Part shown: in pieces, positions 10,425-41,826 of the stretch
Position numbering within the stretch: position 1 is the stretch's first letter
How the letters are laid out: every line of letters starts with the position of its first letter
DNA from: Candidatus Nomurabacteria bacterium
GTDB taxonomy: Bacteria > Patescibacteriota > Minisyncoccia > Phycocordibacterales > UBA9973
Direction: 5' to 3'
DNA: 41,829 nt
Assembly (NCBI GenBank): GCA_029288725.1
Contig: JARIGS010000016.1
Span: 1 to 41,829 of the forward strand
The notes under the pieces: model-generated
Database searches by the model: none
The model's input: only the letters and a program-made list of their open reading frames with translations
Told to the model about the DNA's origin: nothing
Made by a program: the position numbers and the translations under genes

Positions 10425-11564
10425 ATGGGACTATCAATTGGAATTGTCGGGCTACCGAACGTGGGGAAGTCGACACTATTTAATGCATTAACGAAAAAGG
10501 GGGTACCGGCAGAGAACTACCCGTTTTGTACGATCGATCCGTCGGTCGGGATTGTGGCAGTGCCGGATGCACGTCTGCAGCAGCTTAGTGACTTTTCGAA
10601 GTCAGCAAAAACTATTCCCGGGGCGATTGAATTCGTGGATATTGCCGGACTAGTAGAAGGCGCATCGAAGGGTGAGGGATTGGGCAATAAGTTTCTTGCC
10701 AATATTCGTGAGACTGATGCGATTCTCGAAATGGTTCGCTTGTTTCCCATTGTCGGTGGCGGTACGGAAATCGCCCATGTCTATGGCAGTGTTGACCCAT
10801 TGCGTGACATTAGTGTCATCAATCTCGAGCTAATCCTGGCTGATTTTGAAACCGTAACAAAACGTCGTGGCAATCTCGCTCGCGATGTGAAGCGTGGTGA
10901 CAAGCCGGCAGTCCTAGAGGACGGCGCACTCGCACGTATCGAAGCGGCATTGGAAGGAGGAAAGCTTGCGAACACCGTTGATCTCACCGAAGAGGAATCA
11001 AAAGTGGTGCGACAGATGAATCTGCTCACGATGAAGAAGTTTCTCTACGGTCTTAACAAGCGCAGTGGCGCCGCTAACCTTGATGAAAGTGATCCGGTGA
11101 AATTTGCTGAATTGCTCACGGCAATTAGTGACAGCGGTGCACAATACGTCCTGCTTGATGCAAAAATCGAAGATGACTTGAAAGATTTTGAAGGTGCCGA
11201 GCGCCAAGAAATGCGCGAAGCGCTTACTGGCGAGGCATCCCGAGCGGAGCAAGGCGAAGTCGAGGGAGACGGAATAAATAACTTAATCACCAAGGCCTAC
11301 GAATTGCTCGGCCTCGAAACATTCTTTACGACCGGTGAGGACGAAACGCGTGCTTGGACTATTGCCAAACATTCTACTGCACCGATTGCCGGCACTGCCA
11401 TTCATACTGACTTCAAGGATAAGTTCATTCGTGCCGAAGTGGTGTACTGGAAAGACCTCCTCGACAGTGGTTCCTATGCCAATGCCCGTTCCAAAGGCCT
11501 CGTTCGCACTGAAGGGAAGGAATACATCGTGAAGGATGGGGATGTGATTGAATTCAAAATTTAA
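10425..11564 (+). CDS. ychF: ribosome-associated ATPase YchF
   Basis: GIVGLPNVGKST, NYPFCTIDP, DIAGLV, GEGLGNKFL, FIRAEV, EGKEYIVKDGD. Confidence 0.97.
   Translation: MGLSIGIVGLPNVGKSTLFNALTKKGVPAENYPFCTIDPSVGIVAVPDARLQQLSDFSKSAKTIPGAIEFVDIAGLVEGASKGEGLGNKFLANIRETDAILEMVRLFPIVGGGTEIAHVYGSVDPLRDISVINLELILADFETVTKRRGNLARDVKRGDKPAVLEDGALARIEAALEGGKLANTVDLTEEESKVVRQMNLLTMKKFLYGLNKRSGAANLDESDPVKFAELLTAISDSGAQYVLLDAKIEDDLKDFEGAERQEMREALTGEASRAEQGEVEGDGINNLITKAYELLGLETFFTTGEDETRAWTIAKHSTAPIAGTAIHTDFKDKFIRAEVVYWKDLLDSGSYANARSKGLVRTEGKEYIVKDGDVIEFKI
11238..11267 (+). repeat. in-frame palindromic insertion in ychF (SRAEQGEVEG)
   Basis: TCCCGAGCGGAGCAAGGCGAAGTCGAGGGA, 30 bp, related to the miaA element. 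Confidence 0.65.
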
Positions 11565-11566
11565 CC

Positions 11567-12136
11567 ATGAACGAATTTCTCATTACCACGCTTGCTCATA
11601 ACGGTCTCGCAATCATTGCTACCGACACGCTCTACGGCATCGTAGGGAAGGCAACTGAGAAGGAAGTAGTAGAGCATATCTATGAAGTTAAGGGGCGTGA
11701 CGAGAACAAGCCATTTATTATTCTTGTTCCTTCAATTGCAACTCTCGAAACATTCGGTGTATTGCTCACTGATAACGATAGAGAAAAAATCTCGCAATGG
11801 TGGCCAGGACCAGTGACCGTTATTTTGCCTGTTGCGCCAGCTTATCAGGAAGCATTGTCATACCTGCATCGTGGTACCAACGAACTAGCATTTCGCATGC
11901 CAGGCAAACCATCGTTGATCGAACTTTTGCAGCACACTGGTCCATTGGTGGCACCAAGCGCCAACCCACAGGGAAAGGAGCCGGCTCATACCATGGCGGA
12001 AGCAAAGGAATACTTTGGGGATGCTATTGCATACTATGAAGACGAAGGGGAAGTGCATGGGTTGCCTTCTACCATTGTTCGTTTACAAAACGGTGAAATA
12101 ACCGTTATTCGACAAGGAGCGATAAGTGTGGTGTAA
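11567..12136 (+). CDS. tsaC: L-threonylcarbamoyladenylate synthase (YrdC/Sua5)
   Basis: TDTLYG, KGR...KP, WPGP, APSAN, PSTI, RQG. Confidence 0.92.
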   Translation: MNEFLITTLAHNGLAIIATDTLYGIVGKATEKEVVEHIYEVKGRDENKPFIILVPSIATLETFGVLLTDNDREKISQWWPGPVTVILPVAPAYQEALSYLHRGTNELAFRMPGKPSLIELLQHTGPLVAPSANPQGKEPAHTMAEAKEYFGDAIAYYEDEGEVHGLPSTIVRLQNGEITVIRQGAISVV

Positions 12137-12137
12137 C

Positions 12138-12166
12138 TTGACTTTTATAAAAAGATTTGCTATAAT
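12138..12166 (+). promoter_or_regulatory. consensus sigma70 promoter
   Basis: TTGACT-17bp-TATAAT with TGn extension. Confidence 0.7.
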
Positions 12167-12209
12167 ATTTTTTAAGAAACTGTTGGTTTTACAATAAAAA
12201 ACGAAACGA

Positions 12210-12557
12210 ATGATAACAAATGCACTCCCTGTTGATTGTTTTGATTCAGAAAATCAGGCACAACTAAAATCACGCCGCATCGCGGTGAGCGTCTTATCCG
12301 TTATTCATATTGTTATGCTCTTAGGCGCCCTCCTTCTTGCTGCTCTACCTTCTGTTACTGCTCTTACGTCGCTTAAATTTGCGACATTCTGGTTCATATT
12401 TTTTTGGCCAGTGCATTACATGCGAAGGTTAGTTGGCATGAATAAGAAATCGGTTATAGCAATCGCTTTCGAATATGCCGAAATTATTTGGTTTGTCGCA
12501 ATATTTATTCTCGTCCTTCAGGTATTTTTTCCGATTCCTCACCTACCGGCTGAATAA
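12210..12557 (+). CDS. hypothetical 3-TM membrane protein
   Basis: Hydrophobic ORF between a promoter and the hairpin at 12571-12601. Confidence 0.65.
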   Translation: MITNALPVDCFDSENQAQLKSRRIAVSVLSVIHIVMLLGALLLAALPSVTALTSLKFATFWFIFFWPVHYMRRLVGMNKKSVIAIAFEYAEIIWFVAIFILVLQVFFPIPHLPAE

Positions 12558-12608
12558 AAGACAATGCCTATAAAAAAGTCCCGTCATCAAACGGGGCTTT
12601 TCTTGTGC

Positions 12609-13166
12609 TTATTTCTTCTTCAATTCCTCAATTTCTTTTTGCAGCGTCATCAGCGTGGATTGGATGGCGGTGAGCGTTTCCAACTCCTTTTTTTCATGCT
12701 CCGCTTCGGCTTCATCACCCACAATATCCTCCTGGATCTCGTCGACATCCTTTTGAATCTCATCCACGTCCTTCTCAATGCCTTCGACGTCTTCCTGAAT
12801 CTCATCCACGTCTTTTTGGATTTCATCGACATCCTCACCGATTTCCTCGATATCCTCCTGGATCTCGTCGACGTCTTCTTGAATTTCCTCAATGTCAGCA
12901 GTGTTCTTGTTCACGGCCATCTGAATAAAGATATTCATATAGATTGCTTCAAGTGACACTGCGGTAGTGACCACGAGCAATACGACATCAAATGGAATAT
13001 GAAAAAAGGGAAGCAGTGCTGCCACGATAAAAAGAATGGTGTGCACCACCAATGATGTCGTTGATCCAAGCCACGTTGTCGCCGACTCCGCGCTCTGCTC
13101 AAGCCATGTTTTCTGAGATTCCTTCTTTGCTACTTTCTTCTTTTTCTTCTTTTGAGCAGCAACCAT
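12609..13166 (-). CDS. DUF1003-like membrane protein with an acidic coiled-coil tail
   Basis: WLGS...HT..F and TTAVSLEAIYM.IFIQM TM hairpin; heptad repeats. Confidence 0.8.
   Translation of the reverse strand: MVAAQKKKKKKVAKKESQKTWLEQSAESATTWLGSTTSLVVHTILFIVAALLPFFHIPFDVVLLVVTTAVSLEAIYMNIFIQMAVNKNTADIEEIQEDVDEIQEDIEEIGEDVDEIQKDVDEIQEDVEGIEKDVDEIQKDVDEIQEDIVGDEAEAEHEKKELETLTAIQSTLMTLQKEIEELKKK
12729..12896 (-). repeat. 8 x 21-bp coding tandem repeat (consensus DVDEIQE/K)
   Basis: DIEEIQE DVDEIQE DIEEIGE DVDEIQK DVDEIQE DVEGIEK DVDEIQK DVDEIQE. Confidence 0.9.
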
Positions 13167-13210
13167 ACCCTATGGTGTACCATATTTACATGAAGAAAGG
13201 CAAACAAAAA

Positions 13211-13240
13211 AAGGGGAAACATTAAATAATGTTTCCCCTT
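13211..13240 (-). terminator. intrinsic terminator
   Basis: AAGGGGAAACATT-AAAT-AATGTTTCCCCTT with a T-run on the - strand. Confidence 0.75.
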
Positions 13241-13252
13241 GAGGTTAGTGTA

Positions 13253-14581
13253 TCAATGAACTGAATGTTCATGCATAACAATCTTTTTTAGCTGTTCGGC
13301 TAATGGACCCTGTGCGCCCTTTGAGCGGGCTTCGTGGCAGCGAGGTAATCCATAGTTGTACAATGGACAACGGCCTTTCACACAGTCATTTTTTCTGCAT
13401 TGCTTTTCGAATCGAGGCTCAAAGTAATCAGTGTCAAATGCAATCAGTATGGCGTCAGTGACGTCTTCTACTGAAAGAAATGTTCCGATCAATCCCTCAA
13501 CGTCCGGGTCAACTTTTGACCCGTTTGAAATGACGCCGGTTGCTTCGTCAAAGTATATTTCCGGCACCAGATCCAGCATCTCGCCCTTTCCCAGTTCTTT
13601 GAACTGAATAGGCTGCTTGCCAGCGGCCCGCATTACCATTTGGCGAAGAATCTTCACTACTGGTCTCATTTCCTCAGCTTTGATGTATTGCTGATTTGGC
13701 ATGAGCACGAATTGGCCATTTGGTTTGTGAAGAAACAATACACCAAGCTTTTTGGTTCTGTTGTCTCTCCATTTGCTTTGTACCACTTTGTTCATTACTG
13801 GTATGCCACTCTTTATTTCAAGAATGACAAACGGTATGTTTTTTTGTGGTGTCACCAGGTCAATTTCGTGTTTCGGTGCAGTTTCGTACGCGTGTTCGGC
13901 ATCCAGAAATAGCTTACTTTGGGCAATCTCGTTGTCATAAAACTTAAATGCCATTTCAAATTCTTTTTTCTGGAGTTCCGGATCAGAGCCCGCTGCCTCA
14001 AAGCCCTTTTTAAGGTTTTGAGCAAAGGCACCAATCTGTAACTTTTGTAGCATTTCTACTTCCTCGCGGTATAACTTACGGTCACCATCTCCACGAAGAC
14101 GGTTGAGGCATTGCATAACGTTATCGCCATTACTATCCTCAAAGTTTACATAATCGATAAGTTTTCCGTACATTTTGCGGTCGTTCTTATCTCTCTGTAG
14201 GTCAAGTAGGGTTACTACTAGTTCTGTGCAGGAAGAGGCTTTTGTACGACTCCCATGTTCATCTAGGGGGCCATTGCCTAATCCTAACAAAAGTAAGCCT
14301 TTTTGCAGAGCTTTGAAGAATCCCTGTTTTCCCAACATATCTTCTTTGCGCAATGTGGTTGTACTGATACAACCAAATGATGCATGTTCGATCTCCGGGA
14401 ATAGGTGTCTTCCTTGTGGAGTATGTGACAGAAGATAGCCGGCGCATAACTCATCATTGTGCGGACCATAATGGGTGCCAACGGTGGTAATGCCGGAGAT
14501 AGGGGTGCGATCGTAGTAAGCCTTTTTAATCTCTTCGATACTCGCAGTCAAACAGTTAACAGATTTCTGATTCTGATCCAT
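13253..14581 (-). CDS. hypothetical protein, possibly a divergent MYG1/DHH-like phosphoesterase with a C-terminal Cys cluster
   Basis: THYGPHNDE and LDEH motifs; C-x4-C-x4-C-x9-C tail; TTGACT-17bp-TATTGT promoter at 14649-14677. Confidence 0.55.
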   Translation of the reverse strand: MDQNQKSVNCLTASIEEIKKAYYDRTPISGITTVGTHYGPHNDELCAGYLLSHTPQGRHLFPEIEHASFGCISTTTLRKEDMLGKQGFFKALQKGLLLLGLGNGPLDEHGSRTKASSCTELVVTLLDLQRDKNDRKMYGKLIDYVNFEDSNGDNVMQCLNRLRGDGDRKLYREEVEMLQKLQIGAFAQNLKKGFEAAGSDPELQKKEFEMAFKFYDNEIAQSKLFLDAEHAYETAPKHEIDLVTPQKNIPFVILEIKSGIPVMNKVVQSKWRDNRTKKLGVLFLHKPNGQFVLMPNQQYIKAEEMRPVVKILRQMVMRAAGKQPIQFKELGKGEMLDLVPEIYFDEATGVISNGSKVDPDVEGLIGTFLSVEDVTDAILIAFDTDYFEPRFEKQCRKNDCVKGRCPLYNYGLPRCHEARSKGAQGPLAEQLKKIVMHEHSVH

Positions 14582-14727
14582 TTTTTTAGGTTTTTATTTT
14601 GTTTTCAATCTGTCACATTATGCCGGACAGGTTCGGCGATTTGTTTATACAATAACATATATTGGCTAAAAAGTCAATATACCGGTAATTTGCTCCAATA
14701 GGGGAGTTATGCTATAGTTTTGCCACT

Positions 14728-14886
14728 ATGGCACAGCAAAACCTCGTAAAATTGGTAAATAAGGAATCCGGCGAAACCTACTGGACAAGCAAAAATAAGA
14801 AAAAGCTTGCAGGTATTAAGTTGGAATTTAAGAAATACAGTAAGAAACTCCGTAAGGTAATTACCTTTAAGGAAGCGAAGAAATAA
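14728..14886 (+). CDS. rpmG: 50S ribosomal protein L33, Cys-free form (not in the ORF track)
   Basis: MAQQNLVKLVNKESGETYWTSKNKKKLAGIKLEFKKYSKKLRKVITFKEAKK; hairpin at 14889-14917. Confidence 0.92.
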   Translation: MAQQNLVKLVNKESGETYWTSKNKKKLAGIKLEFKKYSKKLRKVITFKEAKK

Positions 14887-14948
14887 GCAAAAAAAGTGGC
14901 TCAAAGCCACTTTTTTTGTTATAGTTTCCAGGCACTTACGCAATCAAA

Positions 14949-15019
14949 GGGCGATTAGTTTAGTGGTAGAACGAAGGTCTCCAAAACCTTTGGTGGGGGT
15001 CCGATTCCCTCATCGCCCG
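14949..15019 (+). tRNA. trnW: tRNA-Trp(CCA)
   Basis: Acceptor GGGCGAT/ATCGCCC; anticodon arm AAGGT-CTCCAAA-ACCTT; T-loop TCCGATT. Confidence 0.92.
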
Positions 15020-15058
15020 CCTTCGCCTCGCTGAAGCTTCGGCTACGGCGAGGCAAAG
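15016..15058 (+). repeat. REP-like palindrome fused to the tRNA-Trp 3' end
   Basis: CCCGCCTTCGCCTCGCTGAAGCTTCGGCTACGGCGAGGCAAAG, related to the mpg and dprA inserts. Confidence 0.65.
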
Positions 15059-15156
15059 CCCGCAAAGTAGCTGGTGCGAAAGCGGGTTTTCCTTAATGAA
15101 TTTTATTTTATTATTCCTTAATTAAAAATTGATAGTCATTTTGCTATTGTTTTCAA

Positions 15157-15468
15157 ATGCATTATGTCTATCAATTAAAACTTAAAGATGGTTATTATGT
15201 TGGTTGTACAAATAACTTAAAAGATAGAATTCATCGACATGCGAATGGACAAATTGAAGCGACAAAAAATAGATTGCCTCTGATATTGCAAACTTACACT
15301 GCTTTTGCGAATAGATATGCGGCCTATGGATTTGAAAAATATTTAAAATCTGGATCAGGAAGAGCTTTTGCCAATAAGCATTTTTATCAGAATTTAAACA
15401 GTAAGTTTATACCCAATATAAATTCCGACGAAGCCACCGATGGCGGTGAGGAAGATAGAGGCAAGTGA
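15157..15468 (+). CDS. stand-alone GIY-YIG nuclease
   Basis: YVY...YYVGCTNNLKDRI..H, EKYLKSGSGR; AT-rich. Confidence 0.88.
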   Translation: MHYVYQLKLKDGYYVGCTNNLKDRIHRHANGQIEATKNRLPLILQTYTAFANRYAAYGFEKYLKSGSGRAFANKHFYQNLNSKFIPNINSDEATDGGEEDRGK

Positions 15469-15558
15469 CAGAAAATTATCACCCCATACCAAAGGAACAA
15501 AACTTCCAATCGTGGAGCCAATGACGGTGAATGTCATGATCGTTTGTTTCTGATTCAT
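15394..15558 (-). CDS. small 2-TM Gly-rich membrane protein, 54 aa (not in the ORF track)
   Basis: MNQKQTIMTFTVIGSTIGSFVPLVWGDNFLSLASIFLTAIGGFVGIYIGYKLTV; ATGA overlap with the mpg stop. Confidence 0.75.
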   Translation of the reverse strand: MNQKQTIMTFTVIGSTIGSFVPLVWGDNFLSLASIFLTAIGGFVGIYIGYKLTV

Positions 15559-16136
15559 GATTTTAGTACAAACCGATATTCCTTATTTGCCCAAATCGGG
15601 CCGGCATAGTCCACACCAATACGAGCAGTGCGGACAATTTTTCTCCCTTGTCTCGCCATAGCTTTAGCGGAGGCCGGATTGTTTTTATCATTGGGGATTT
15701 CCACCCAAAGACCGGTGTCCGTGCCGAGTACTTTGCCATTGAGCATTCGAGTGATGCCCAATCGCTTTGCAACCCTGCCAGGACCAACGATTGGCTCGAC
15801 AGCATCCTTGGTTACTTTTTCAACTCCGCGAATGAGGACAGCTGCCGGATACTCCTTTTCACCCGTTACGATATTGAGCATGTTATGCATGCCATAGATA
15901 AGGAAGACATAGATCGTGCCGGCTTGCTGATACATCACTTCGGTTCGGGCAGTGCGGCCTTTGGAAGAATGGCTGGCAAGATCGTGTGGACCAACATACG
16001 CTTCAGTTTCGGTAATCATATAGCGCGTGATGCCATCGGCATCACGCCTGACCAAATAACAGCCCAGCAATTCCTTTGCCACAACCAATGCTGATCTATT
16101 GAAAAATGAAAGGGGAGCCTTTTTATTACTTTGCAT
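15555..16136 (-). CDS. mpg: 3-methyladenine DNA glycosylase (AAG/Mpg family)
   Basis: ITETEAY, DLASH, YVFLIYGMH, AVLIR, GPGR, RIGV. Confidence 0.92.
   Translation of the reverse strand: MQSNKKAPLSFFNRSALVVAKELLGCYLVRRDADGITRYMITETEAYVGPHDLASHSSKGRTARTEVMYQQAGTIYVFLIYGMHNMLNIVTGEKEYPAAVLIRGVEKVTKDAVEPIVGPGRVAKRLGITRMLNGKVLGTDTGLWVEIPNDKNNPASAKAMARQGRKIVRTARIGVDYAGPIWANKEYRFVLKS
15645..15677 (-). repeat. in-frame palindromic insertion in mpg (PASAKAMARQG)
   Basis: CCGGCCTCCGCTAAAGCTATGGCGAGACAAGGG, 33 bp. Confidence 0.65.
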
Positions 16137-16986
16137 ATTTTTTAAACCATGTTCGCTGACGCTTGGCGTACTGCCAGATGGCGGCTTCAAGTTGTGTAAG
16201 CATACTTGCCCTGAGCGAAGTCGAAGGGTCTGGTTCAGATAGTTTTTCTTGGAGCATTAGCGCGACATATCGGTACTCCAATCCCAGGGCTTCCAGTCTT
16301 TTCCATGACAATCCTTCAGCGTGCAATGTGGCGACTTCCTGCACCATGCCTTCCTTCATTCTTTTAATAAGGCGAGTGTGAATGCGGCCCTTTAGTATTT
16401 CATCAGGAAAATCCAGGTATATCCATTCAACAGCGTACTTAGTAGAACGGACTACCGGCGGTACCTTGCCCAATGCATCAGCAATTTCAATGGCGCGGAT
16501 CATTCTTACTTTGTTGTGAATATCGATCGACTCATAGCGATCAATATCAAGTGTTTGCAATTTTTGACGTAATGCATCAAGTGAAAGGAGCTCCAAACTT
16601 TTTCGCAATTCTTTGTTCGGTGCTACGGCCGGAAATTGCTGACCAAAGACTACGGCATCGATATAGAAGCCGGTGCCGCCGACTATGATAGGGACATGGT
16701 TGCGCTTGATGATCTGTTGTATGGTCTTGTCCGCCAATTTTTTATATTGAGCAACGCTGAAGGTGCGCTTAGGGCTGGCGACATCAAGGAGGTGGTGAGG
16801 GATACCCTGCATCTCCTTCACCGTGATTTTGCCACTGCCAATATCCAACCCTTTGTAGACTTGGCGCGAATCAGCCGAGATAATTTCCGCCCCAATGCCT
16901 TGTTTGGCCAGGTCTTTTGCAAGATTGACTGCATAGTCTGATTTGCCAGTGGCCGTCGGGCCACAGATGACGATAAGCTTGTGCAT
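16126..16986 (-). CDS. miaA: tRNA dimethylallyltransferase
   Basis: GPTATGKS, ISADSRQVY, VGGTGFY, YAKRQRTWF. Confidence 0.96.
   Translation of the reverse strand: MHKLIVICGPTATGKSDYAVNLAKDLAKQGIGAEIISADSRQVYKGLDIGSGKITVKEMQGIPHHLLDVASPKRTFSVAQYKKLADKTIQQIIKRNHVPIIVGGTGFYIDAVVFGQQFPAVAPNKELRKSLELLSLDALRQKLQTLDIDRYESIDIHNKVRMIRAIEIADALGKVPPVVRSTKYAVEWIYLDFPDEILKGRIHTRLIKRMKEGMVQEVATLHAEGLSWKRLEALGLEYRYVALMLQEKLSEPDPSTSLRASMLTQLEAAIWQYAKRQRTWFKKYAK
16204..16228 (-). repeat. in-frame palindromic insertion in miaA (PSTSLRAS)
   Basis: CCCTTCGACTTCGCTCAGGGCAAGT. Confidence 0.7.
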
Positions 16987-17051
16987 ACTGCGATTCTATC
17001 ATAGAATTACGGGCACGGGTCGCCGTCGCTTTCGGGCTTTGGCGTACCAAT

Positions 17052-17134
17052 GCCGATGTGGCGGAATGGTAGACGCGATCGACTCAAAATCGATTACTCG
17101 CAAGGGTGTGGAGGTTCGAGTCCTCTCTTCGGCA
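17052..17134 (+). tRNA. trnL: tRNA-Leu(CAA)
   Basis: Anticodon arm ATCGA-CTCAAAA-TCGAT, long variable arm, GGAGG-TTCGAGT-CCTCT; terminator at 17141-17166. Confidence 0.93.
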
Positions 17135-17184
17135 CAAGAAAGAAAAAGCCCCTCGGGGCTTTTTCTTTATGCTACACTATTCCC

Positions 17185-18180
17185 ATGTCCAATTTGTATA
17201 GCAACTCAATTTTCTTTATCGAGGTCGAAAAGATTGTTCCCAATCCCTATCAGCCCCGTCGTGAGTTCGAGCCAGGTCCACTGAAAGACCTCTCGGATTC
17301 CATTCGTCAGTATGGCATTCTCCAGCCGCTGACCGTCTCACGCGTTGAACGCGAGACCCCTGATGGTGGACTGATCACCGAATACGAATTAATTGCCGGT
17401 GAGCGTCGCTTGCGCGCCTCCAAACTTGCTGGATTGCGTGAAGTGCCTGCGATCATTCGTGTTGGTGATGATTCAATGATGAAATTGGAATTGGCAATCA
17501 TCGAAAACCTCCAGCGTGAGGACCTCAATGCTGTTGAGCGCGCTCGCGCCTTTGCGCGATTGGTGGAGGAATTCAAATTCACTCATACCCAGATCGGTCA
17601 GAAGGTAGGGAAGAGTCGTGAATACGTTTCCAACACTGTTCGCTTACTTGCATTGCCTCAGGATATTCTTGACGCGCTTTCAAATGGCAAAATCAATGAA
17701 GGTCACACCCGTCCGTTGCTGATGCTTTCCAACCGTCCTGAAGAACAGGCAACGCTGTTCAAGGAAATTCAATTCCGTAAAATCACCGTTCGTGAGGCGG
17801 AGCGCATTGCTCGCCGTATCGCCGTTGAAAAGGTGCGCAAGCAAAATCTCATCCCTAATGCCGAACTGATGCAGATTGAACATCAGCTTCAGGAAAGCCT
17901 CGGCACTCGCGTTCATATCGAGCCAAAGGAAGCGGGCGGCAAGATTACCATCGACTATTTCTCCAATGAGGACCTCGACCTTATTTTGGGTGTGCTTAGC
18001 AAGACGAAGGAAGTTGCTGCGCCTGTAGCGGTCTCAGTACAAGAAGAAACAATCTTCGAGCCATCTCCAGAATCAGAAAAAGAAGCTATTACAGAGCTAG
18101 ATGATCGAAATATCGAAGAAGTGCAAAAGAGTGAAGAAGAAGTGGACGATCTCTACAACCTCAAGAATTTTTCCTTGTAG
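17185..18180 (+). CDS. parB: chromosome partitioning protein ParB/Spo0J
   Basis: PNPYQPR, GILQP, IAGERRLRA, IIENLQREDL, HTH; start 6 nt after TACACT. Confidence 0.93.
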   Translation: MSNLYSNSIFFIEVEKIVPNPYQPRREFEPGPLKDLSDSIRQYGILQPLTVSRVERETPDGGLITEYELIAGERRLRASKLAGLREVPAIIRVGDDSMMKLELAIIENLQREDLNAVERARAFARLVEEFKFTHTQIGQKVGKSREYVSNTVRLLALPQDILDALSNGKINEGHTRPLLMLSNRPEEQATLFKEIQFRKITVREAERIARRIAVEKVRKQNLIPNAELMQIEHQLQESLGTRVHIEPKEAGGKITIDYFSNEDLDLILGVLSKTKEVAAPVAVSVQEETIFEPSPESEKEAITELDDRNIEEVQKSEEEVDDLYNLKNFSL

Positions 18181-19635: not shown

Positions 19636-19660
19636 AGTGTTCTATTACTATAGCGCACGA

Positions 19661-19691
19661 TAAAAAAACCGCCAATGATGGCGGGCTTTTT
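19661..19691 (-). terminator. terminator after topA
   Basis: CCGCCA-ATGA-TGGCGG flanked by A and T runs. Confidence 0.6.
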
Positions 19692-21900
19692 ATTTTGTAT
19701 CAACCTTCACTTTCTTTTGAAATCCTCGCGGTTTCTTTTCCTGTGCCAGAAGTTCTTGAGCCTGTGCAAGGGTAATGTCATAGACATTCAATGGTGGTTT
19801 GATGGAACGGAAGTTGCCGTCACACGCAACGTAGGGACCGAAGCGGCCGTTGTTTGCGGTGATGTCAGCACCGGTCTTTGGATCCTGTCCAAGAGTGCGG
19901 GGAATGGAAAGGTATTTCGTTGCCATAGCGACGGTGACGGTCGTTGGATCAACTTCTTTGGGGATGCTTGCCATGCGGGGCTTCACCTGTTTCTTGCCCT
20001 TGATCTTTGGCGGCATTTCACCAAGCTGGACATACGGGCCGAAGCGTCCAATCATGGTGAATATTGGTAGGCCGCTTTCGGGATCGATACCGATCGGTTC
20101 ATCCTTCTTGATTTCCAATCCATCGATCGTTAATGCGCCGTCACATTCAGGATAGCGATCGCAGGAGAGGAACTTGCCGCCACGGCCCAGCTTCACAATC
20201 ATGCCACTGCCGCACTTTGGACATTTGTACTTGTCATCAGCTTTTTCAAGAATAGTAGCCTTATCAAGCTTTTGCTTTTCTTTCACCTCCTTGAGAAATG
20301 GGGTGTAAAATTCGGATAATACTTTCTTGTATTTTAATTCGCCATTGGCAATCTCATCCAGTTTGTCTTCCATTTCGGCGGTGAAAGTATCGCTGATATA
20401 GTGCATAAAGTTCTGTTCGAGGAAACTTGAAACCACCTCGCCGGTATCAGTCGGCTTCAATGAGCGTCCAACTTTTTCTACATAGCCACGGTCTTCAATG
20501 GTTTTCATGATGGAGGCATAGGTAGAAGGACGGCCAATACCACGGGCTTCCAATTCCTTCACCAATCCAGCTTCGGAATAGCGATTTGGTGGTTCGGTCT
20601 GCTTGGCAATGTCTTCGAGCGAAAGCAGTGTCAGCGGCTCGCCTTTGGTGAGAGCAGGCAGCTCAACGTCCTCACCGCGCGCAGCTTCATCAACGGTGAG
20701 CCAGCCAGGGAAAAGTACTTGACTACCAGTCACGGTGAAATCAGGAATACTGTCAGAAGCAACGTTGCCGACAACGCGAGTCTTCAGTACTTTTGCATCA
20801 GCCATTTGAGAGGCAACGGTGCGTTCCCAGATGAGACGATAGAGCTTTTTTTGTTCCTCGGTCATGCCGAGTGATTCCTTTTCAACATGGGTAGGACGAA
20901 TAGCTTCATGGGCTTCTTGGGCATTTTTTGCCTTAGTTTTGTAAGTCCGTGTTTCCAAATAGTCCTTGCCGAATTTTTTCAGCACTAATGCACTGATACC
21001 TTGGACTGCGATGTCAGACAGGGTGGTTGAGTCGGTACGCATATACGTGATATGGCCGGCTTCATAGAGCTTCTGAGCAACCTGCATGGTGCGGGCCGGA
21101 GAAAATGACAAGCGGGAACTGGCAGCCTGCTGCAAGGTAGAAGTAGTGAACGGTGCCTTAGGAGAGCGTTTCTGCTCGGTTTCCTTGATGTCCTTTACCA
21201 GCCATGCTTCCTTGTTGGCAATGCCGATAATGCGATCAACTTCCTTTTTGTCACGAGGCTCCTCAACACAAGTAAGCACTAGCTCCGCCTTAGAAGCGGT
21301 TTTCACTTTTGCCTGAAGCACCCAGTAATCTTCAGGAATAAATGCCCGGATTTCTCGCTCACGCTCTACTAAGATACGGAGGGCAGGAGACTGGACGCGA
21401 CCAGCAGACAGGCCATAGCGAACCTTTTGCCAGATGATGCCGGAAAGGTCATAGCCAACGAGACGGTCAAGAACGCGGCGGGCTTCCTGGGCCTGGCGAA
21501 GATCAGTATCAATCTTACGAGGATGGTGCAATGCCTCAGTCACGGCTTCCTTGGTGATCTCGTTAAAGGTCACGCGGCTAATTGGCGCCTTGACCTTCTT
21601 GTCTTCCTTCAGCAATGACTCAATGTGCCAGGCAATAGCTTCTCCTTCGCGGTCCGGGTCGGGTGCGAGAATAATCTCCTTGGCTTTTTCTGCCAGGGCC
21701 TGCAGTTCACTTACGACCCTCTCTTTTCCTTTGCTAATTTCATAGTGAGGAATAAAACCGCCCTCGATGTCGATGGCTTTTTTATTTGACTTCGGCAAGT
21801 CGCGAACATGTCCAACGGAAGCGCGTACGGTGTACGCGCCTTCAAGATATTTCTCGATCGTTTTTGCTTTTGATGGTGATTCGACAATTAATAATTTCAT
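19690..21900 (-). CDS. topA: DNA topoisomerase I
   Basis: IVESPSK, DPDREGE, SAGRVQS, ITYMRTD, AHEAIRP, GIGRPST; one Zn ribbon plus two GRFGPYV repeats. Confidence 0.97.
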   Translation of the reverse strand: MKLLIVESPSKAKTIEKYLEGAYTVRASVGHVRDLPKSNKKAIDIEGGFIPHYEISKGKERVVSELQALAEKAKEIILAPDPDREGEAIAWHIESLLKEDKKVKAPISRVTFNEITKEAVTEALHHPRKIDTDLRQAQEARRVLDRLVGYDLSGIIWQKVRYGLSAGRVQSPALRILVEREREIRAFIPEDYWVLQAKVKTASKAELVLTCVEEPRDKKEVDRIIGIANKEAWLVKDIKETEQKRSPKAPFTTSTLQQAASSRLSFSPARTMQVAQKLYEAGHITYMRTDSTTLSDIAVQGISALVLKKFGKDYLETRTYKTKAKNAQEAHEAIRPTHVEKESLGMTEEQKKLYRLIWERTVASQMADAKVLKTRVVGNVASDSIPDFTVTGSQVLFPGWLTVDEAARGEDVELPALTKGEPLTLLSLEDIAKQTEPPNRYSEAGLVKELEARGIGRPSTYASIMKTIEDRGYVEKVGRSLKPTDTGEVVSSFLEQNFMHYISDTFTAEMEDKLDEIANGELKYKKVLSEFYTPFLKEVKEKQKLDKATILEKADDKYKCPKCGSGMIVKLGRGGKFLSCDRYPECDGALTIDGLEIKKDEPIGIDPESGLPIFTMIGRFGPYVQLGEMPPKIKGKKQVKPRMASIPKEVDPTTVTVAMATKYLSIPRTLGQDPKTGADITANNGRFGPYVACDGNFRSIKPPLNVYDITLAQAQELLAQEKKPRGFQKKVKVDTK

Positions 21901-21962
21901 AATGAGTGTATGCAGTAGTACCATGCATGCAATTATTTAGCAAATAATCGCTATGCTTCATT

Positions 21963-22859
21963 CTATATAATGCGTTCAATTAATCCGTATGTTTCTCGGA
22001 TTGCTCCTTTTATTTCCAGTGTTGAAAAAGCAATGCTGGCGGCAACAATATCAAGCGATAAGGTTTCAACCAATGTTTCCTTGGATTGAGGCATTCGTAG
22101 GGCATTGATGATCAGTTGTTCAGTCTCATTCAATATAATAGAGCCGCCTTCGCTCTGCTGAGCTTCGGCGCCCCAAAGGGGGAGTGTGCCAGGAAGAGTA
22201 AAATGTAATTCCTCAATAATATCGGTGGGGTTGGTAATAGGAATGGCGCCAAGCTTGAGCAGCCAGTTGGCCCCGACCGAAGTGGGGGAAGTGACGGGGC
22301 CGGGGACTGCACCGACGCTCTTATTGTATTCGGTGGCCAGACGGGCAGTGATCAGCGTACCAGATTTTTCCTCCGCCTCTATAATAATAGTCATGCTGGC
22401 AATGCCTGCCTCAAGACGGTTGCGTTGGGGAAACATCCAGGTCATACCACGAATGTCGTGATCGAACTCACTGAGCAATGCGCCGCCGCTTTCCAGAATT
22501 CTTTTGGCTAAGGTGCGATGCTGGCCGGGATAGATCGCGTCTTCGGCTAGGCCTGATCCGGGAAAGGCAATGGTTGGTAGCCCCGCTTCAAGTGCCGCTT
22601 GGTGAGCGATGGCATCAATGCCGATTGCCAAACCGGAAACAATCGTGACGGGGTAGTCCCGCAGTCCCTTGATCAGCATCTCGCAGACTTGCTTGCCGTA
22701 ACTGGAATAGTTTCGTGATCCGACCACCGTGATCAGGGTCGTGCCCACAATGCGATCAAGTGAGCCGCGCATATGCAAGGTCATCGGGGGCTGAGGAATC
22801 TCCTGCAATTGCGGAAAGTGCTCAGCCACTGTAATTGTCTTGATCGGAAAATCTTCCAT
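21963..22859 (-). CDS. dprA: DNA-processing protein DprA
   Basis: VVGSR, VSGLAIGID, FPQRNR, SGTLITA, AVPG. Confidence 0.95.
   Translation of the reverse strand: MEDFPIKTITVAEHFPQLQEIPQPPMTLHMRGSLDRIVGTTLITVVGSRNYSSYGKQVCEMLIKGLRDYPVTIVSGLAIGIDAIAHQAALEAGLPTIAFPGSGLAEDAIYPGQHRTLAKRILESGGALLSEFDHDIRGMTWMFPQRNRLEAGIASMTIIIEAEEKSGTLITARLATEYNKSVGAVPGPVTSPTSVGANWLLKLGAIPITNPTDIIEELHFTLPGTLPLWGAEAQQSEGGSIILNETEQLIINALRMPQSKETLVETLSLDIVAASIAFSTLEIKGAIRETYGLIERII
22144..22176 (+). repeat. in-frame palindromic insertion in dprA (WGAEAQQSEGG on the coding strand)
   Basis: CCGCCTTCGCTCTGCTGAGCTTCGGCGCCCCAA. Confidence 0.65.
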
Positions 22860-22945
22860 GACCACAGTATTGCATAATGGGTATCAAGAATATTTAAAGT
22901 TCACCTTAAGATTTTCTTTATCACCAAATTGCTACACTGCTGCCT

Positions 22946-23290
22946 ATGCCAGAAAAAGAAGATTTTGAAGAGATAAAACTGAATGCAGAAAATAATTACA
23001 AGAGTGTTGTTGAAGTATATTGTCCCTATTTTAAGGAAAAAATAGTTTTTAATTCAGAAGGTTTGGAACATTTAAAATTTAAACGTCATGAAAAGCCACG
23101 ATCGGAACAAGAACAACACATGCGATTCAAATTACTCGGCTTAGCTCCCGAGGTAATACGATCATCGCACACATTGCAGGGCTTGCGAGAAATAAGAAAA
23201 TTTGAACGCATGCGTAATATTCCGTTTTGGAGAATTAGTAAAAAAACTGGTACACGGTTATTTTTTGAAGGAAATCCTGATGAAGATTAG
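22946..23290 (+). CDS. putative BECR/RelE-like nuclease-fold protein, possibly internally deleted
   Basis: VYCPYF.E.I.FNSEGLEHL, R.KLL..A; AT-rich; family call from motif resemblance only. Confidence 0.5.
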   Translation: MPEKEDFEEIKLNAENNYKSVVEVYCPYFKEKIVFNSEGLEHLKFKRHEKPRSEQEQHMRFKLLGLAPEVIRSSHTLQGLREIRKFERMRNIPFWRISKKTGTRLFFEGNPDED

Positions 23291-23293
23291 GAT

Positions 23294-23325
23294 ATAAAAA
23301 ATCCCTCGTACGAGGGATTTTTTAT
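23294..23325. terminator. bidirectional terminator (perfect 32-bp palindrome)
   Basis: ATAAAAAATCCCTCGTACGAGGGATTTTTTAT. Confidence 0.8.
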
Positions 23326-23379
23326 TAGGTGTTTGGCTACAGTATATAAACCGTGAGGGAGCGAACTCCCCAAACACCT
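23296..23379 (-). ncRNA. candidate ~84-nt structured small RNA
   Basis: TTGAGG-17bp-TAGTAT promoter (23386-23414); three-way junction with a UUCG hairpin; ends in the terminator. Confidence 0.6.
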
Positions 23380-23436
23380 TGGTACATACTAGCATAAGTT
23401 TAAAAAATCCTCAAAATACGCTATAGTAGAGCTACT

Positions 23437-24705
23437 ATGCTCGATATTAAATTCATTAAGGAAAATCCGGACATTATCAAGGAAGCAGTGCAGAAGAAAA
23501 ACGTGTCGCTGGATGTTGACTTGCTGTTGGCAGTAGAAGAAAAGCGCCGTGAGGCATTGGCGACATTTGAATCATTGCGCACCGAACAGCATGCATTGTC
23601 CGACAAGATTCCTCAGACCGCTGACGCGACTGAGCGTGCCCAGCTGATCGAAAGCCTGAAGCCGTTGAAGGAAAAAGTCCAGGAGGCCGAAGAGCATGTC
23701 CGCACGGTCATGAAGGAATGGCAGGGGCTGATGATTCAGGTGCCGAACATTCCCGACATGTCTGCGCCGATTGGCCCTGACGAAACGTTCAGCGTTGTGC
23801 AAAAGACCTGGGGAGAGAAGCCGGTCTTCTCATTTGAACCAAAGGATCACATCGACATCATGCTTGGACTCGACATCGTCGACTTCGAGCGCGGCGTGAA
23901 AGTTCATGGTTTTCGTGGATATTATTTGAAAGGTGATGGCGTGAAGCTGTGCTTTGCCATTTGGAATTACGCTATGGATTTCTGGACCAAGCGGGGATTC
24001 AATCCGGTCATGCCACCGATGATTACCAAGCGCGAGCCATTGATGGGCTGTGGCTTCATTCCTCAGGGCGAGGCTGACATTTACAAGAATCAGGACGATA
24101 CCTATCTCGTCGGTACTTCCGAAGTGGGGCTGATGGGCATGTACATGGATGAAGTCCTTCCAAAGGAACAATTGCCGATCAAGATGCTTGGCTTTTCACC
24201 GTGCTATCGCTTGGAAGCGGGCAGCTATAACAAGGATGTGAAAGGGCTTATTCGTGTCCATGAATTTTACAAGCTTGAGCAGGTAGTGTTGTGTGAAGCC
24301 TCTCACGAGGAAAGCGTGCAATGGCATGAGACCATGAACGAAAGCACGGAACAGTTCATCGAATCACTGGGTATTCCGTATCACACCCTCAATGCCTCAA
24401 CGGGTGACATGGGACTGGGCAAGGTCAAGATGTATGACATCGAGCTGTGGGTACCAAAGGAAGAAACCTATCGCGAGATTTCCTCAGCATCATATTTCCA
24501 TGATTTCCAAACCCGCCGTCTCGGTATTCGCTACAAGGACGCTGAAGGGAAGTTACGCTATGCTCACTCACTGAACTGTACTGCTATTCCGACACCGCGT
24601 ATTCTGGTCTCATTGGTAGAAAACTTCCAGGAAGCCGATGGCACTATCCGCATTCCCGAAGTGTTGCGTCCTTACATGAACAATCAGGAATACATCGGCA
24701 AGTAG
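23437..24705 (+). CDS. serS: serine--tRNA ligase
   Basis: MLDIKFI, VPNIP, GTSE, GLIRVHEF, EISSAS, HSLN.T. Confidence 0.97.
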   Translation: MLDIKFIKENPDIIKEAVQKKNVSLDVDLLLAVEEKRREALATFESLRTEQHALSDKIPQTADATERAQLIESLKPLKEKVQEAEEHVRTVMKEWQGLMIQVPNIPDMSAPIGPDETFSVVQKTWGEKPVFSFEPKDHIDIMLGLDIVDFERGVKVHGFRGYYLKGDGVKLCFAIWNYAMDFWTKRGFNPVMPPMITKREPLMGCGFIPQGEADIYKNQDDTYLVGTSEVGLMGMYMDEVLPKEQLPIKMLGFSPCYRLEAGSYNKDVKGLIRVHEFYKLEQVVLCEASHEESVQWHETMNESTEQFIESLGIPYHTLNASTGDMGLGKVKMYDIELWVPKEETYREISSASYFHDFQTRRLGIRYKDAEGKLRYAHSLNCTAIPTPRILVSLVENFQEADGTIRIPEVLRPYMNNQEYIGK

Positions 24706-24706
24706 T

Positions 24707-25564
24707 ATGTATGAACGGACCTATCACAAAACGGTTTTAAAACAGGAAGAAAAAGACGTCGACAAAAAAAACAGTCGGGGCAAAGCAGGCGCCCTACGCG
24801 AATGGAATTGGAAACTGATCATTGGCATTGTTAGTGCGGTGATCCTTCTTGTCGGAAGCGTGCTGCTCATTCGTGCGCCGCGTCTGCAGGTCCGGACTAT
24901 TGAAGTGAATGGTGCACATGTTGCTGATCCAGGGGATATTACAGAATTTGTGAACAGTCAGTTACAGGGAAATAAGCTCTTCATCTTACCCCGTAGCAGT
25001 ATTTTTCTTGCTCCTGAGCATGCTATAGAAAAAGCCCTTAAGGCGCAGTTTCCACGTTTGCAAACAGTGGAAGTTGATCGCAAGAATTTCTCCACCCTCA
25101 GCATCAATGTCACAGAATTCCAGGGCATGTACTTGTGGTGCACCGCTGATGCTGATTGTTACTTTATGGATCAGAATGGTATTGCCTTTGCCACTGCACC
25201 GTATTTCTCGGGTACTGCCTATCCGAAGATTTTTAATGGTACCGCTAGCACATTGCCATTTCAGGCGGTAACTGCTGATCAGCTCACGATGGTATCGCTG
25301 TTGCTGTCTCGTTTGCCAAGCCTTGGCATTGATCCAGCGGAATTTCACTTTGTTAGCGATCATGAGCTTGATGTCGATTTCAATCACGACGGTCATCAAG
25401 CCCAGCTCATATTTGATCCGACCAGCAATACTGCTGATGCACTGCAGGTGCTCTTTACCGGTTTGCGCACCAATCCGTTGGCGGGAAAGTTTCGTGATGC
25501 ATCACAAGTCCTGCAATATATCGATTTGCGTTTTTCTAACAGGATAGTATATAAGTTCCAATAG
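24707..25564 (+). CDS. FtsQ/DivIB-like cell division protein
   Basis: Single N-terminal TM, POTRA-like region, C-terminal YIDLRF. Confidence 0.75.
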   Translation: MYERTYHKTVLKQEEKDVDKKNSRGKAGALREWNWKLIIGIVSAVILLVGSVLLIRAPRLQVRTIEVNGAHVADPGDITEFVNSQLQGNKLFILPRSSIFLAPEHAIEKALKAQFPRLQTVEVDRKNFSTLSINVTEFQGMYLWCTADADCYFMDQNGIAFATAPYFSGTAYPKIFNGTASTLPFQAVTADQLTMVSLLLSRLPSLGIDPAEFHFVSDHELDVDFNHDGHQAQLIFDPTSNTADALQVLFTGLRTNPLAGKFRDASQVLQYIDLRFSNRIVYKFQ

Positions 25565-25565
25565 T

Positions 25566-26690
25566 ATGCATTTCTGGCAGACCCTACGGGAAAAAAGGAA
25601 AGTAAATGGTGCGCCATTCTTTTGTGTGGCACCGATGGCTGACGTGACTGATCCGGCATTTCGTCGGCTCATTGCCACGTATGGCAAACCCGCCTCGACT
25701 CGGGGCGACTCGTCGACGCGAGGCGGGCCGGACGTAATGTGGACCGAGTTCGTCTCGGCCAATGGTCTAATGAGTGCGGGCAGGGAAGTGTTGCAGCGTG
25801 ATTTGGTCTATGCCGAAATGGAACGACCGATTGTGGCGCAGCTCTTTTCTTCTGATCCGGAAAAAATGGAACAGGCTGCGCGATTGTGTGCAGAGCTTGG
25901 CTTCGACGGTATTGATATCAATATGGGCTGTCCTGATAAGACGATTGAAAAGCAGGGAGCAGGAGCGGGCATGATTAAGACACCAGAGGTTGCAGTAGCA
26001 ATCATTGCAGCGGCAAAGCGTGGGGCAGGAACTATCCCGGTATCGGTAAAGACCCGTGTTGGCTACAATGTTGCTGATATTGATAATTGGATTGCATTAC
26101 TCTTGCAACAGGATATTGCGGCTCTGACGGTCCACGCCCGTACACGCAAGGAATTATCAAAAGTGCCGGCTCATTGGGGCTACATCAAGCAAGTGGTGGC
26201 ATTGCGTGACAAGCTTGCACCGCAGACAGTCATTATTGGAAACGGTGACGTAACCAGTCTGGCAGACGGTGCTGCAAAAGCAGCGGCAAGTGGCTGTGAT
26301 GGCGTGATGGTAGGTCGTGCACTGTTTGGTAACCCCTGGTTCTTTGATGCGTCACGTCAAATTACTGCAACACTACCGAAAAAATCATTGCTGCAAAAAG
26401 TTCCCTTCATTGGAAAGTATATTGAGACCAAGCGTTCTGCTGCCCAGTCCGTATCGCGACCGATTACAGTGCAGGAACGATTGCAGGTCATGGTGGAGCA
26501 TACGAAACTGTTTGAGCAATTGCTCGGTGACGTCAAAAGTTTTTCCATTATGAAGAAGCACTATAAGGCCTACTGTACCGGCTTTGCCGGCGCCAAGGAA
26601 TTGCGCATGCAGCTGATGGACGAGGCAAAAAATGCCGCTGATGTGGAACAGATAACGAGGCAGTTTTTAGATAATTTTCTGCTACAATAG
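25566..26690 (+). CDS. dus: tRNA-dihydrouridine synthase
   Basis: APMADVTD, TEFVS, DINMGCP, VKTR, VHART, GNGDV, GVMVGR. Confidence 0.95.
   Translation: MHFWQTLREKRKVNGAPFFCVAPMADVTDPAFRRLIATYGKPASTRGDSSTRGGPDVMWTEFVSANGLMSAGREVLQRDLVYAEMERPIVAQLFSSDPEKMEQAARLCAELGFDGIDINMGCPDKTIEKQGAGAGMIKTPEVAVAIIAAAKRGAGTIPVSVKTRVGYNVADIDNWIALLLQQDIAALTVHARTRKELSKVPAHWGYIKQVVALRDKLAPQTVIIGNGDVTSLADGAAKAAASGCDGVMVGRALFGNPWFFDASRQITATLPKKSLLQKVPFIGKYIETKRSAAQSVSRPITVQERLQVMVEHTKLFEQLLGDVKSFSIMKKHYKAYCTGFAGAKELRMQLMDEAKNAADVEQITRQFLDNFLLQ
25689..25727 (+). repeat. in-frame palindromic insertion in dus (PASTRGDSSTRGG)
   Basis: CCCGCCTCG...CGAGGCGGG, 9-bp terminal inverted repeat, 39 bp. Confidence 0.8.
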
Positions 26691-33184: not shown

Positions 33185-33335
33185 ATAACTGAATAGTAGC
33201 CTAAACCAGCGAATAATCGCTGGCATGGCGAAGAAACCGCACGATACTAAAAACCCCATCAGTAGGGCGTATCGTGCGTCGCGTCTGGAAACGGACGTGT
33301 GGAGCTTCACGGCTTCTCCTAGTGATGGGCTTTTT
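33185..33335 (+). ncRNA. candidate structured RNA or leader in the island
   Basis: TTTACA-16bp-TATAGT promoter; several helices, a GAAA tetraloop, possible pseudoknot, T-run at the end. Confidence 0.5.
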
Positions 33336-41638: not shown

Positions 41639-41711
41639 GGGCCCTTAGCTCAGCTGGTAGAGCAGTGCTTTTGCAAAGCAAAGGTCAGGAGTTCGAATCT
41701 CCTAGGGTCCA
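41639..41711 (+). tRNA. trnA: tRNA-Ala(TGC)
   Basis: GGGCCCT/AGGGTCC with G3:U70; TTTGCAA anticodon loop; TTCGAAT T-loop. Confidence 0.93.
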
Positions 41712-41753
41712 CAAAGAAAAAACCATTATCAGGAGATAATGGTTTTTTCTTTG

Positions 41754-41826
41754 TGGACCCTAGGAGATTCGAACTCCTGACCTTTGCTTTGCAAAAGCAC
41801 TGCTCTACCAGCTGAGCTAAGGGCCC
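41754..41826 (-). tRNA. inverted copy of tRNA-Ala(TGC), probably a fold-back artefact
   Basis: Identical mirror of 41639-41711. Confidence 0.3.

Follow-up and report, generated by a model that had tools for sequence, protein, structure and literature searches.

Among the Rickettsia palindromic elements (RPEs), RPE-1 is about 100-150 bp long and encodes 30-50 amino acids. Systems in which REPs (repetitive extragenic palindromic sequences) come paired with a REP-associated tyrosine transposase (RAYT), the REPIN-RAYT systems, were reportedly described by Bertels and Rainey in 2011. In excerpts of Di Nocera et al. 2013 (PMC3733652), REPs are presented as tagged hairpins with short GC-flanked loops and compensatory sub-families, and intragenic REPs are placed in genes for DNA repair, tRNA modification, tRNA synthetases and pseudouridine synthases. 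The same excerpts equate RPE-4 and RPE-6 with the CGTC REPs, which carry a terminal CGTC/TGTC/CCTC tag, an 8-9 bp stem starting with A/T pairs and a CCA tail. Here we examine a window that comprises the whole of one contig (C2; JARIGS010000016.1, 41,829 nucleotides) of a Candidatus Nomurabacteria bacterium (genome GCA_029288725.1, here G000). It holds five short GC-rich segments, one each in the genes ychF, mpg, miaA, dprA and dus. We consider it fairly probable that these segments are very short GC-rich hairpin repeats of the REP or RPE kind, which were inserted as DNA.

The genome comprises 725 kb in 29 contigs, has a G+C content of 46% and is 97% complete as judged by marker genes; class-level relatives have genomes of 0.4-1.9 Mb. 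The five segments are richer in G+C (58-79%) than the genome and lie in proteins with the Pfam domains YchF, methylpurine-DNA glycosylase (MPG), MiaA, DprA and Dus. The initial annotation, which had placed them correctly to within a few bases (Table 1), took them for in-frame insertions. Alignment with same-genus orthologues identifies all five as frame-preserving insertions of 8-13 codons (24-39 bp), since orthologues of each gene were found that do not have these residues. In mpg, where G000 has NDKNNPASAKAMARQGRK, an 11-residue gap is seen in five of six orthologues, and a diverged copy stands at the identical position in G006. The ychF insert is 10-11 amino acids long; 8 of 13 full-length same-genus orthologues have no insert and read LAG-----------EDDGI, and a diverged copy is common to G001. 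For miaA, four of five congeners show a gap of 8 amino acids (24 bp), and G044 shares the element. The dprA product is 9-10 amino acids longer than in three of five congeners and 5 amino acids longer than in the other two. In dus, G000 has 39 bp (13 amino acids) extra, and all five congeners join GGCAAR straight to CCYGAT.

The turnover of such insertions was surveyed by comparing 19 loci of G000 with five congeners. Further sites with in-frame gaps in congeners were MsrB (27 bp), PheT (33 bp), TsaD, three sites in LeuRS and others. The length of each insert examined is divisible by three, and no insert brings a stop codon into the host frame. Insertions in dus, dprA, MsrB, PheT and a 784-codon open reading frame (ORF) on contig C28 are private to G000; those in miaA and mpg, at the three LeuRS sites and at C19:7041 are common to G000 and one congener. 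The repeat system had been suggested to be active in the initial annotation, and the insertions private to the species are the one ground on which it may be called so. In some cases the same codon holds a different element in different species. In ychF, a family B element (families are defined below) lies in forward orientation in G000 and in reverse orientation in G033; in TsaD, family A in G000 faces family B in G001; and in an amidase, family A in G000 faces a B-like element in G044. Such reuse of a codon may mean that few sites are tolerant, that certain targets are preferred or that one element has replaced another.

The divergence of orthologous copies is about that of the DNA around them (65-83% identical over aligned segments). 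By manual counts, the mpg copies of G000 and G006 agree at 19 of 26 bases and the miaA copies at 17 of 21. The orthologous copy at the LeuRS N-terminus has been kept somewhat better than the others, with 31 of 36 bases identical. Unlike these decayed orthologous copies, non-orthologous copies match the consensus.

By sequence comparison, the five segments fall into three families of DNA repeats, here called A, B and C. A family A profile was grown from the mpg copy and run against the contigs of G000 with nhmmer. The number of copies was 35 with an E-value of <= 1e-3 and rose to 47 with E < 0.5. If up to two mismatches are allowed, G000 has 24 occurrences of the family A 20-mer CGCCRWAGCYTYRGCGRAGG, versus none in shuffled genomes. 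The mpg copy scores 31 bits and an intergenic copy next to tRNA-Trp 17.6 bits; the dprA copy matches weakly (9.9 bits) over the full length of the profile, with a 4-nt loop insert. Family B has about 12 B-like copies in G000 versus 1-3 in shuffles, and the miaA element recurs exactly at C22:62800-62819. The miaA and ychF elements have the frame YCCY-GAGC...TCGA-RGGR in common, with ychF as the long-loop version. Family C is represented in G000 by the single copy in dus. Profile scores and the shared frame thus bear out the grouping first proposed, with mpg, dprA and the tRNA-Trp copy in A and miaA and ychF in B, and the 35 A and about 12 B copies show that the motifs recur elsewhere in the genome. 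A self-BLAST of G000 for de novo repeats returned only terminator-like palindromes and sequencing adapters and did not pick up the degenerate families. In Rfam, no family matching the element was found, either in the window at the gathering score or around two copies at E <= 10.

Family A copies lie mostly in genes: 26 of the 35 fall within an open frame of 140 or more codons, and the other 9 do not. Pfam recognises 20 proteins that together hold 22 copies: sigma-70, M23 peptidase, PaaX-like, TruB, amidase, FtsK, RluA-type synthase, TsaD, MsrB, IleRS, LigA, FKBP, a DUF1861 protein (two copies), RecJ, LeuRS (two copies), DoxX, RecA, PheT, DnaJ and MPG. Of the remaining ORFs with family A, three were outside the Pfam search and one, pilin-like, matched no family. 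Several copies stand directly after the start codon and three in prepilin-like leaders. At C28:79365-81295, a family A-like copy precedes a G/F-T-L-V-E-L motif in the leader peptide of each of three adjacent prepilin-like genes.

Table 1. Elements of the window and RAYT-like genes of the same genome (window positions unless a contig is named)
Feature	Position	Strand	Reading, host gene and remarks
Family B element, long loop	11238..11267	+	in-frame SRAEQGEVEG in ychF (gene 10425-11564 +)
Family A copy, expanded loop, intergenic	15017..15058	-	abuts 3' end of tRNA-Trp (14949-15021); nhmmer E = 0.0022 genome-wide
Family A element	15646..15676	model strand +	PASAKAMARQG on - strand in mpg (gene 15555-16190 -); nhmmer E = 9e-8
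Family B element	16209..16228	+	PSTSLRAS on - strand in miaA (gene 16126-16986 -)
Family A-like element, 4-nt loop insert	22144..22178	-	WGAEAQQSEGG, sense frame, in dprA (gene 21963-22865 -)
Family C element, 9-bp outer stem, SalI-site core	25689..25727	+	read PASTRGDSSTRGG in dus (gene 25566-26690 +)
RAYT-like Y1 gene	C1:27685-28332 (L074:1315-1962)		
RAYT-like Y1 gene	C1:12190-12873 (L073:1270-1953)		
RAYT-like Y1 gene	C24:32643-33242 (L072:1291-1890)		

The family A unit consists of a 5' tag, CTTSG, followed by the hairpin YCCGCC-GWA-GC-YTYR-GC-GRA-GGCGGR. Its outer stem and its inner GC-Y..R-GC stem are preserved through compensatory changes, and the internal loops are G.A-type mismatches. 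Across 129 cross-phylum family A copies, the outer pair, which joins the base preceding CCGCC to the one following GGCGG, is C-G 50 times, T-A 48 times and other 31 times; for the inner pair, the counts are 75 C-G, 50 T-A and 4 other. Non-Watson-Crick intermediates are C.A (16) and T.G (8), and neither strand is favoured. The one-sided 5' tag C-T-T/G-G is conserved in the same 129 copies. Family B stems occur as TCCT..AGGA, CCCC..GGGG, CACT..AGTG and GCCT..AGGC. When folded as DNA and compared with shuffles, the window copies gave z values of -2.24 (dus), -0.91 (dprA), -0.04 (miaA), +1.23 (mpg) and +1.35 (ychF), and the tRNA-Trp copy -1.33; the mean over 35 family A copies was -1.05 versus mononucleotide shuffles. 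The segments had been described as self-complementary. This is clear from folding for dus and supported by covariation for the A and B stems, whereas the other four segments show no clear folding excess. We accept the A and B stems because of the compensatory changes between genomes and not because of folding energy; the G.A mismatch loops of both families are probably scored poorly by the folding model.

Within the genus, the family A 20-mer was found in 25 of 51 genomes and in none of the other 26, with top counts of 24, 21, 21 and 19, against three matches to the reversed control. At the level of the class, it occurs with up to one mismatch in 175 of 301 genomes (138 of 221 genera), and two control matches were seen. 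Family B is present in 101 of the 301 class genomes and family C arms in 7 of 250 other class genomes, both with 0 control matches. With one genome per species, an exact 23-mer of family A recovered at least 120 stretches from many phyla; the matches listed include Acidobacteriota, Verrucomicrobiota, Alphaproteobacteria, Planctomycetota, Bacteroidota, Patescibacteria and others. Family A copies of Vicinamibacteria often form inverted dimers, and copies at lower-GC loci in other phyla lie in short as well as in long open frames. From flank conservation and covariation, we estimate that the cross-phylum copies are the same element, with some GC-rich chance matches to be expected. It is even conceivable, although we regard it as rather doubtful, that A and B together form a third, domain-wide super-family of tagged hairpins with a CTTSG tag, GC stems and tandem G.A loops. 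Such a super-family would be distinct from the GTAG and CGTC REPs and kept by a widely shared activity on single-stranded DNA; in bacteria of the candidate phyla radiation (CPR) it would be mainly intragenic, reusing or replacing copies at few codons.

Three head-to-tail family A copies with a 38-bp period were seen at L182:7661-7759, in a contig of a deltaproteobacterial metagenome-assembled genome. In a string search with four 10-mers of the element, the 25 best of 228 matches were exclusively 16S and primer sequences. A 3'-half variant of family A that carries TGGCGAAGGCGG (e.g. window 15017-15030) presumably has a 12-nt identity to a conserved stretch of 16S rRNA. The rough chance probability of this identity is about 0.01, and it may be a coincidence.

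A candidate for moving such hairpins is a RAYT, and G000 has three Y1/HUH genes. Their best NCBIfam match is REP-associated tyrosine transposase, with 60, 20 and 28 bits (cut-off 80). Each gene is bracketed on both sides by a hairpin of its own, namely GGGGTCTGACCCC, TTAGAGGCTSAGCCTCTAA and a 9-copy palindrome, CTCTTGAGGTCGGTCCTCAAGAG, which also resembles a bidirectional terminator. The first of these, GGGGTCTGACCCC, fits the GGGGWSAS motif that is assigned to ‘TIRYT’ genes in the excerpts of Di Nocera et al. 2013 (PMC3733652). Y1 genes occur in 15 of the 25 genus genomes with family A and in 6 of the 26 genomes without it, counts that come from genomes that are not independent. A linkage of family A to RAYT genes was looked for in G000, in the genus and at 120 cross-phylum loci, and none was seen.

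At the PheT junction, the 33 nt that were inserted include the 5' tag, and no duplication is seen. The flanks of miaA and dprA favour the CTTG tag as a pre-existing target, but the PheT junction contradicts this. The word CAAG is present at the empty miaA site in three of four congeners, and the mpg, ychF and dus sites have no such word. At the dus junction there may be a one- to two-base CC ambiguity.

Since no enzyme could be linked to families A, B and C, the mobilisation mechanism is something we infer. The hairpins would spread in single-stranded form, with an HUH/Y1 (RAYT-like) enzyme or another activity acting on them in trans. Only copies that retain the recognised sequence would continue to multiply, and for this reason, we propose, young copies match the cross-genome consensus and old orthologous copies decay. 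The genome is tightly packed, so that most landing places would be genes. Visible copies would be the survivors of selection, those that preserve the host frame, are read in a benign frame and lie in tolerant loops or termini. We read the segments as a hairpin element akin to REPs and RPEs that is kept where a protein loop tolerates extra residues.

Several observations weigh against this reading. At 4 of the 19 surveyed loci (RecA, FtsK, FKBP and TruB, with variable linkers) no clean gap could be called, and three of the five window copies fold no better than shuffles under standard DNA parameters. None of the hairpins that flank the three RAYT-like genes of G000 is an A, B or C element. When the family A profile was run on 31 RAYT loci of the genus, it gave a single, unconvincing match with an E-value of 0.18. 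The 888 kb around the 120 cross-phylum copies contained no homologue of the three RAYT-like proteins, and no gene recurs as a neighbour of these copies. In G034, four Y1 genes occur without any family A copy, and G007 (9 copies) and G010 (8 copies) have no Y1 match. A selfish repeat bound to one lineage would not usually show near-identical 23-mers in many phyla, and GC-rich genomes could add chance matches to the cross-phylum count. Finally, that the inserts are translated, as short Ala/Ser/Gly/Lys-rich loop extensions, is itself a point that we infer.

Some of these observations would be accounted for if the hairpins were functional nucleic-acid signals that are kept by host selection and are intragenic for want of intergenic space. 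A protein-binding site would be one candidate; a structure for replication, transcription, mRNA stability or DNA uptake would be another. The occurrence of a 20-23-mer in many phyla and in 175 of the 301 genomes of the class, against very few reversed-control matches, is in line with such a role, as are the compensatory changes in both stems, the conserved one-sided tag and the lack of a linked transposase in our searches. The presence of different families at the same protein site across species (ychF, amidase and TsaD) would also fit. On the other hand, a signal on which the host depends is hard to reconcile with copy numbers of 0-24 among congeners and with none in 26 of 51 genomes. Most positions are occupied in no more than one or two species, and orthologous copies decay near the background rate. 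The covarying pairs show no strand-specific G.T excess (C.A 16 versus T.G 8), and no Rfam family matches. We therefore regard host-selected signals as unlikely, and insertion of a REP- or RPE-like repeat as the better account of the five segments.

A second alternative is that a peptide motif, a linker resembling P-A-S-A-K-A-T-A-G, is selected at the protein level and that the likeness of the DNA is a by-product. Family A coding copies are in fact not evenly distributed over the reading frames: 18 of 27 use one of four open frames (binomial 6e-6, with frames taken as equally open), the favoured frame encodes [PST][AS][SF]A[KEQ]A[TSM]A.., and several copies lie in linkers or at N-termini. However, the peptide uses the codons of the element itself. 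In ORFs of at least 100 codons, the peptide [SF]A[KE]A[TSM]A occurs 12 times, and in 11 of these cases its last two Ala positions are GCT and GCG, a rare combination for which 3.5% is expected from the codon usage of the genome. This largely refutes selection of the peptide and argues for insertion at the DNA level. The remaining copies use three further frames and also the opposite strand, 9 of the 35 copies lie outside long ORFs, and the same DNA is found in short-ORF or intergenic settings in other phyla. Within the window, family A is read from opposite strands in mpg and dprA, and family B in miaA and ychF (peptides in Table 1). These opposite-strand readings, together with the copies outside ORFs, the shared codons and the gaps in orthologues, agree with the initial annotation, which had favoured DNA-level insertion over protein selection, and we consider the peptide explanation very improbable. 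We read the frame bias instead as a filter that leaves survivors, and as such it is consistent with selection on the encoded peptide after insertion; the other open frames of family A encode Arg- and Leu-rich strings.

Removal of the inserts from the mRNA or bypassing by the ribosome, as known for the GC-rich ‘byp’ elements of a yeast mitochondrion, would also suit short GC-rich hairpins in essential genes of an organism for which public sequencing runs list three DNA runs (with 4-5% of sampled words) and no RNA run, but it is most improbable, since each insert examined is a stop-free multiple of three and a strong bias towards a benign frame is expected only with translation.

In a model of Dus built from a 6-sequence alignment (mean predicted local distance difference test score, pLDDT, 66.3), the insert is located between helix 30-39 and strand 57-62, and pLDDT is below 50 at 47-53. 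This model weakly supports placement of the insert in a loop. In matches to solved structures, the Dus alignment begins after the insert and that of MiaA has a gap near it.

The window contains further features apart from the repeats. A full-length match to LOOT RNA (Rfam RF03000) lies at 33198-33316 (+), with 80 bits compared to a gathering score of 46. At the contig end, two tRNA-Ala(UGC) genes with identical Rfam scores are arranged as an inverted pair, at 41639-41712 (+) and 41753-41826 (-); this could be a genuine pair or an assembly fold-back. Several contig ends of G000 carry CTGTCTCTTATACACATCT, an assembly artefact that we take to be a left-over Nextera-type adapter (e.g. C7:1204-1230, C12:18657-18684, C17:1-22, C22:91681-91708 and C28:86105-86132).

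If the segments are inserted repeats, essential proteins of a minimal-genome bacterium, among them RecA, sigma-70, DNA ligase, FtsK, aminoacyl-tRNA synthetases and tRNA-modification enzymes, have been lengthened by a tiny DNA repeat. The inserts would be a cheap source of loop variation and at the same time a pitfall when CPR proteins are annotated or when phylogenies are built from their alignments. A hairpin of about 30 nt that is conserved across phyla and not linked to an enzyme raises the testable question of its recogniser, and the recurrence of different elements at one codon offers a handle on target choice versus tolerance. To this picture the window contributes five host genes, the third family, the codon test, the reuse of sites and the negative RAYT tests.

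Literature searches on palindromic, REP, RAYT and RPE repeats in CPR bacteria or Patescibacteria returned no paper on such elements in CPR bacteria among the matches listed, which for the REP and RAYT repeats were the best 15 of 54. Among the described systems, the REPs share a number of features with the elements. Both are GC-rich hairpins of 20-40 bp with many dispersed copies and an unpaired tag at one end, and both have short GC-flanked loops with non-complementary tri-nucleotides between stem and loop. Both form compensatory sub-families, vary strongly in copy number between related genomes, occur as inverted dimers in some hosts and have copies inside ORFs, often in genes for DNA repair, tRNA synthetases and pseudouridine synthases. 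In contrast to REPs, which are mostly extragenic, most copies described here are intragenic. The terminal tag of family A is CTTSG and not the GTAG of the GTAG REPs. A G[T/A]AG does occur in family A, between the outer and inner stems, with position 6 being T in 63 and A in 66 of the 129 copies. Unlike the repeats of GTAG REPtrons, family A flanks none of the three RAYT-like genes of G000 and has no convincing match at the 31 RAYT loci of the genus. It also differs from the CGTC REPs, as its stem YCCGCC/GGCGGR has neither A/T first pairs nor a conserved 3' tail; in some copies the 5' side does show TGTC, but the final two of these bases pair with the 3' arm. Family B likewise lacks the tags that define the REPs. 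This separation of A and B from the REPs is drawn from text descriptions in the excerpts of PMC3733652, and the families may equal one of the 28 families of that paper.

With the REPIN-RAYT systems, G000 has in common that a population of hairpin repeats and HUH/Y1 transposase-like genes occur in one genome; however, the RAYT-like genes are bracketed by hairpins other than A, B and C, and the presence of Y1 genes tracks family A loosely. The PheT junction, which has no target-site duplication, sets the elements apart from miniature inverted-repeat transposable elements. IS200/IS605-type hairpin elements of the PATE-like (palindrome-associated transposable element) kind insert 3' of a fixed tetranucleotide external to the element, and nothing is duplicated; here the sites point both ways, with CAAG at the empty miaA site in three of four congeners and a tag internal to the insert in PheT. 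In behaviour, the analogy to Rickettsia palindromic elements that the initial annotation had drawn is apt: both are palindromic, stand in frame in conserved genes, have no counterpart in orthologues and have no identified transposase. RPEs are translated into additional loop residues, as the present elements would be. The elements described here differ from RPEs by their size of 24-39 bp (8-13 amino acids), by their host lineage and by not being confined to one genus, features that distinguish the two at the level of description rather than of aligned RPE sequence. Overall, the elements closely resemble the known REP and RPE kinds and are smaller.

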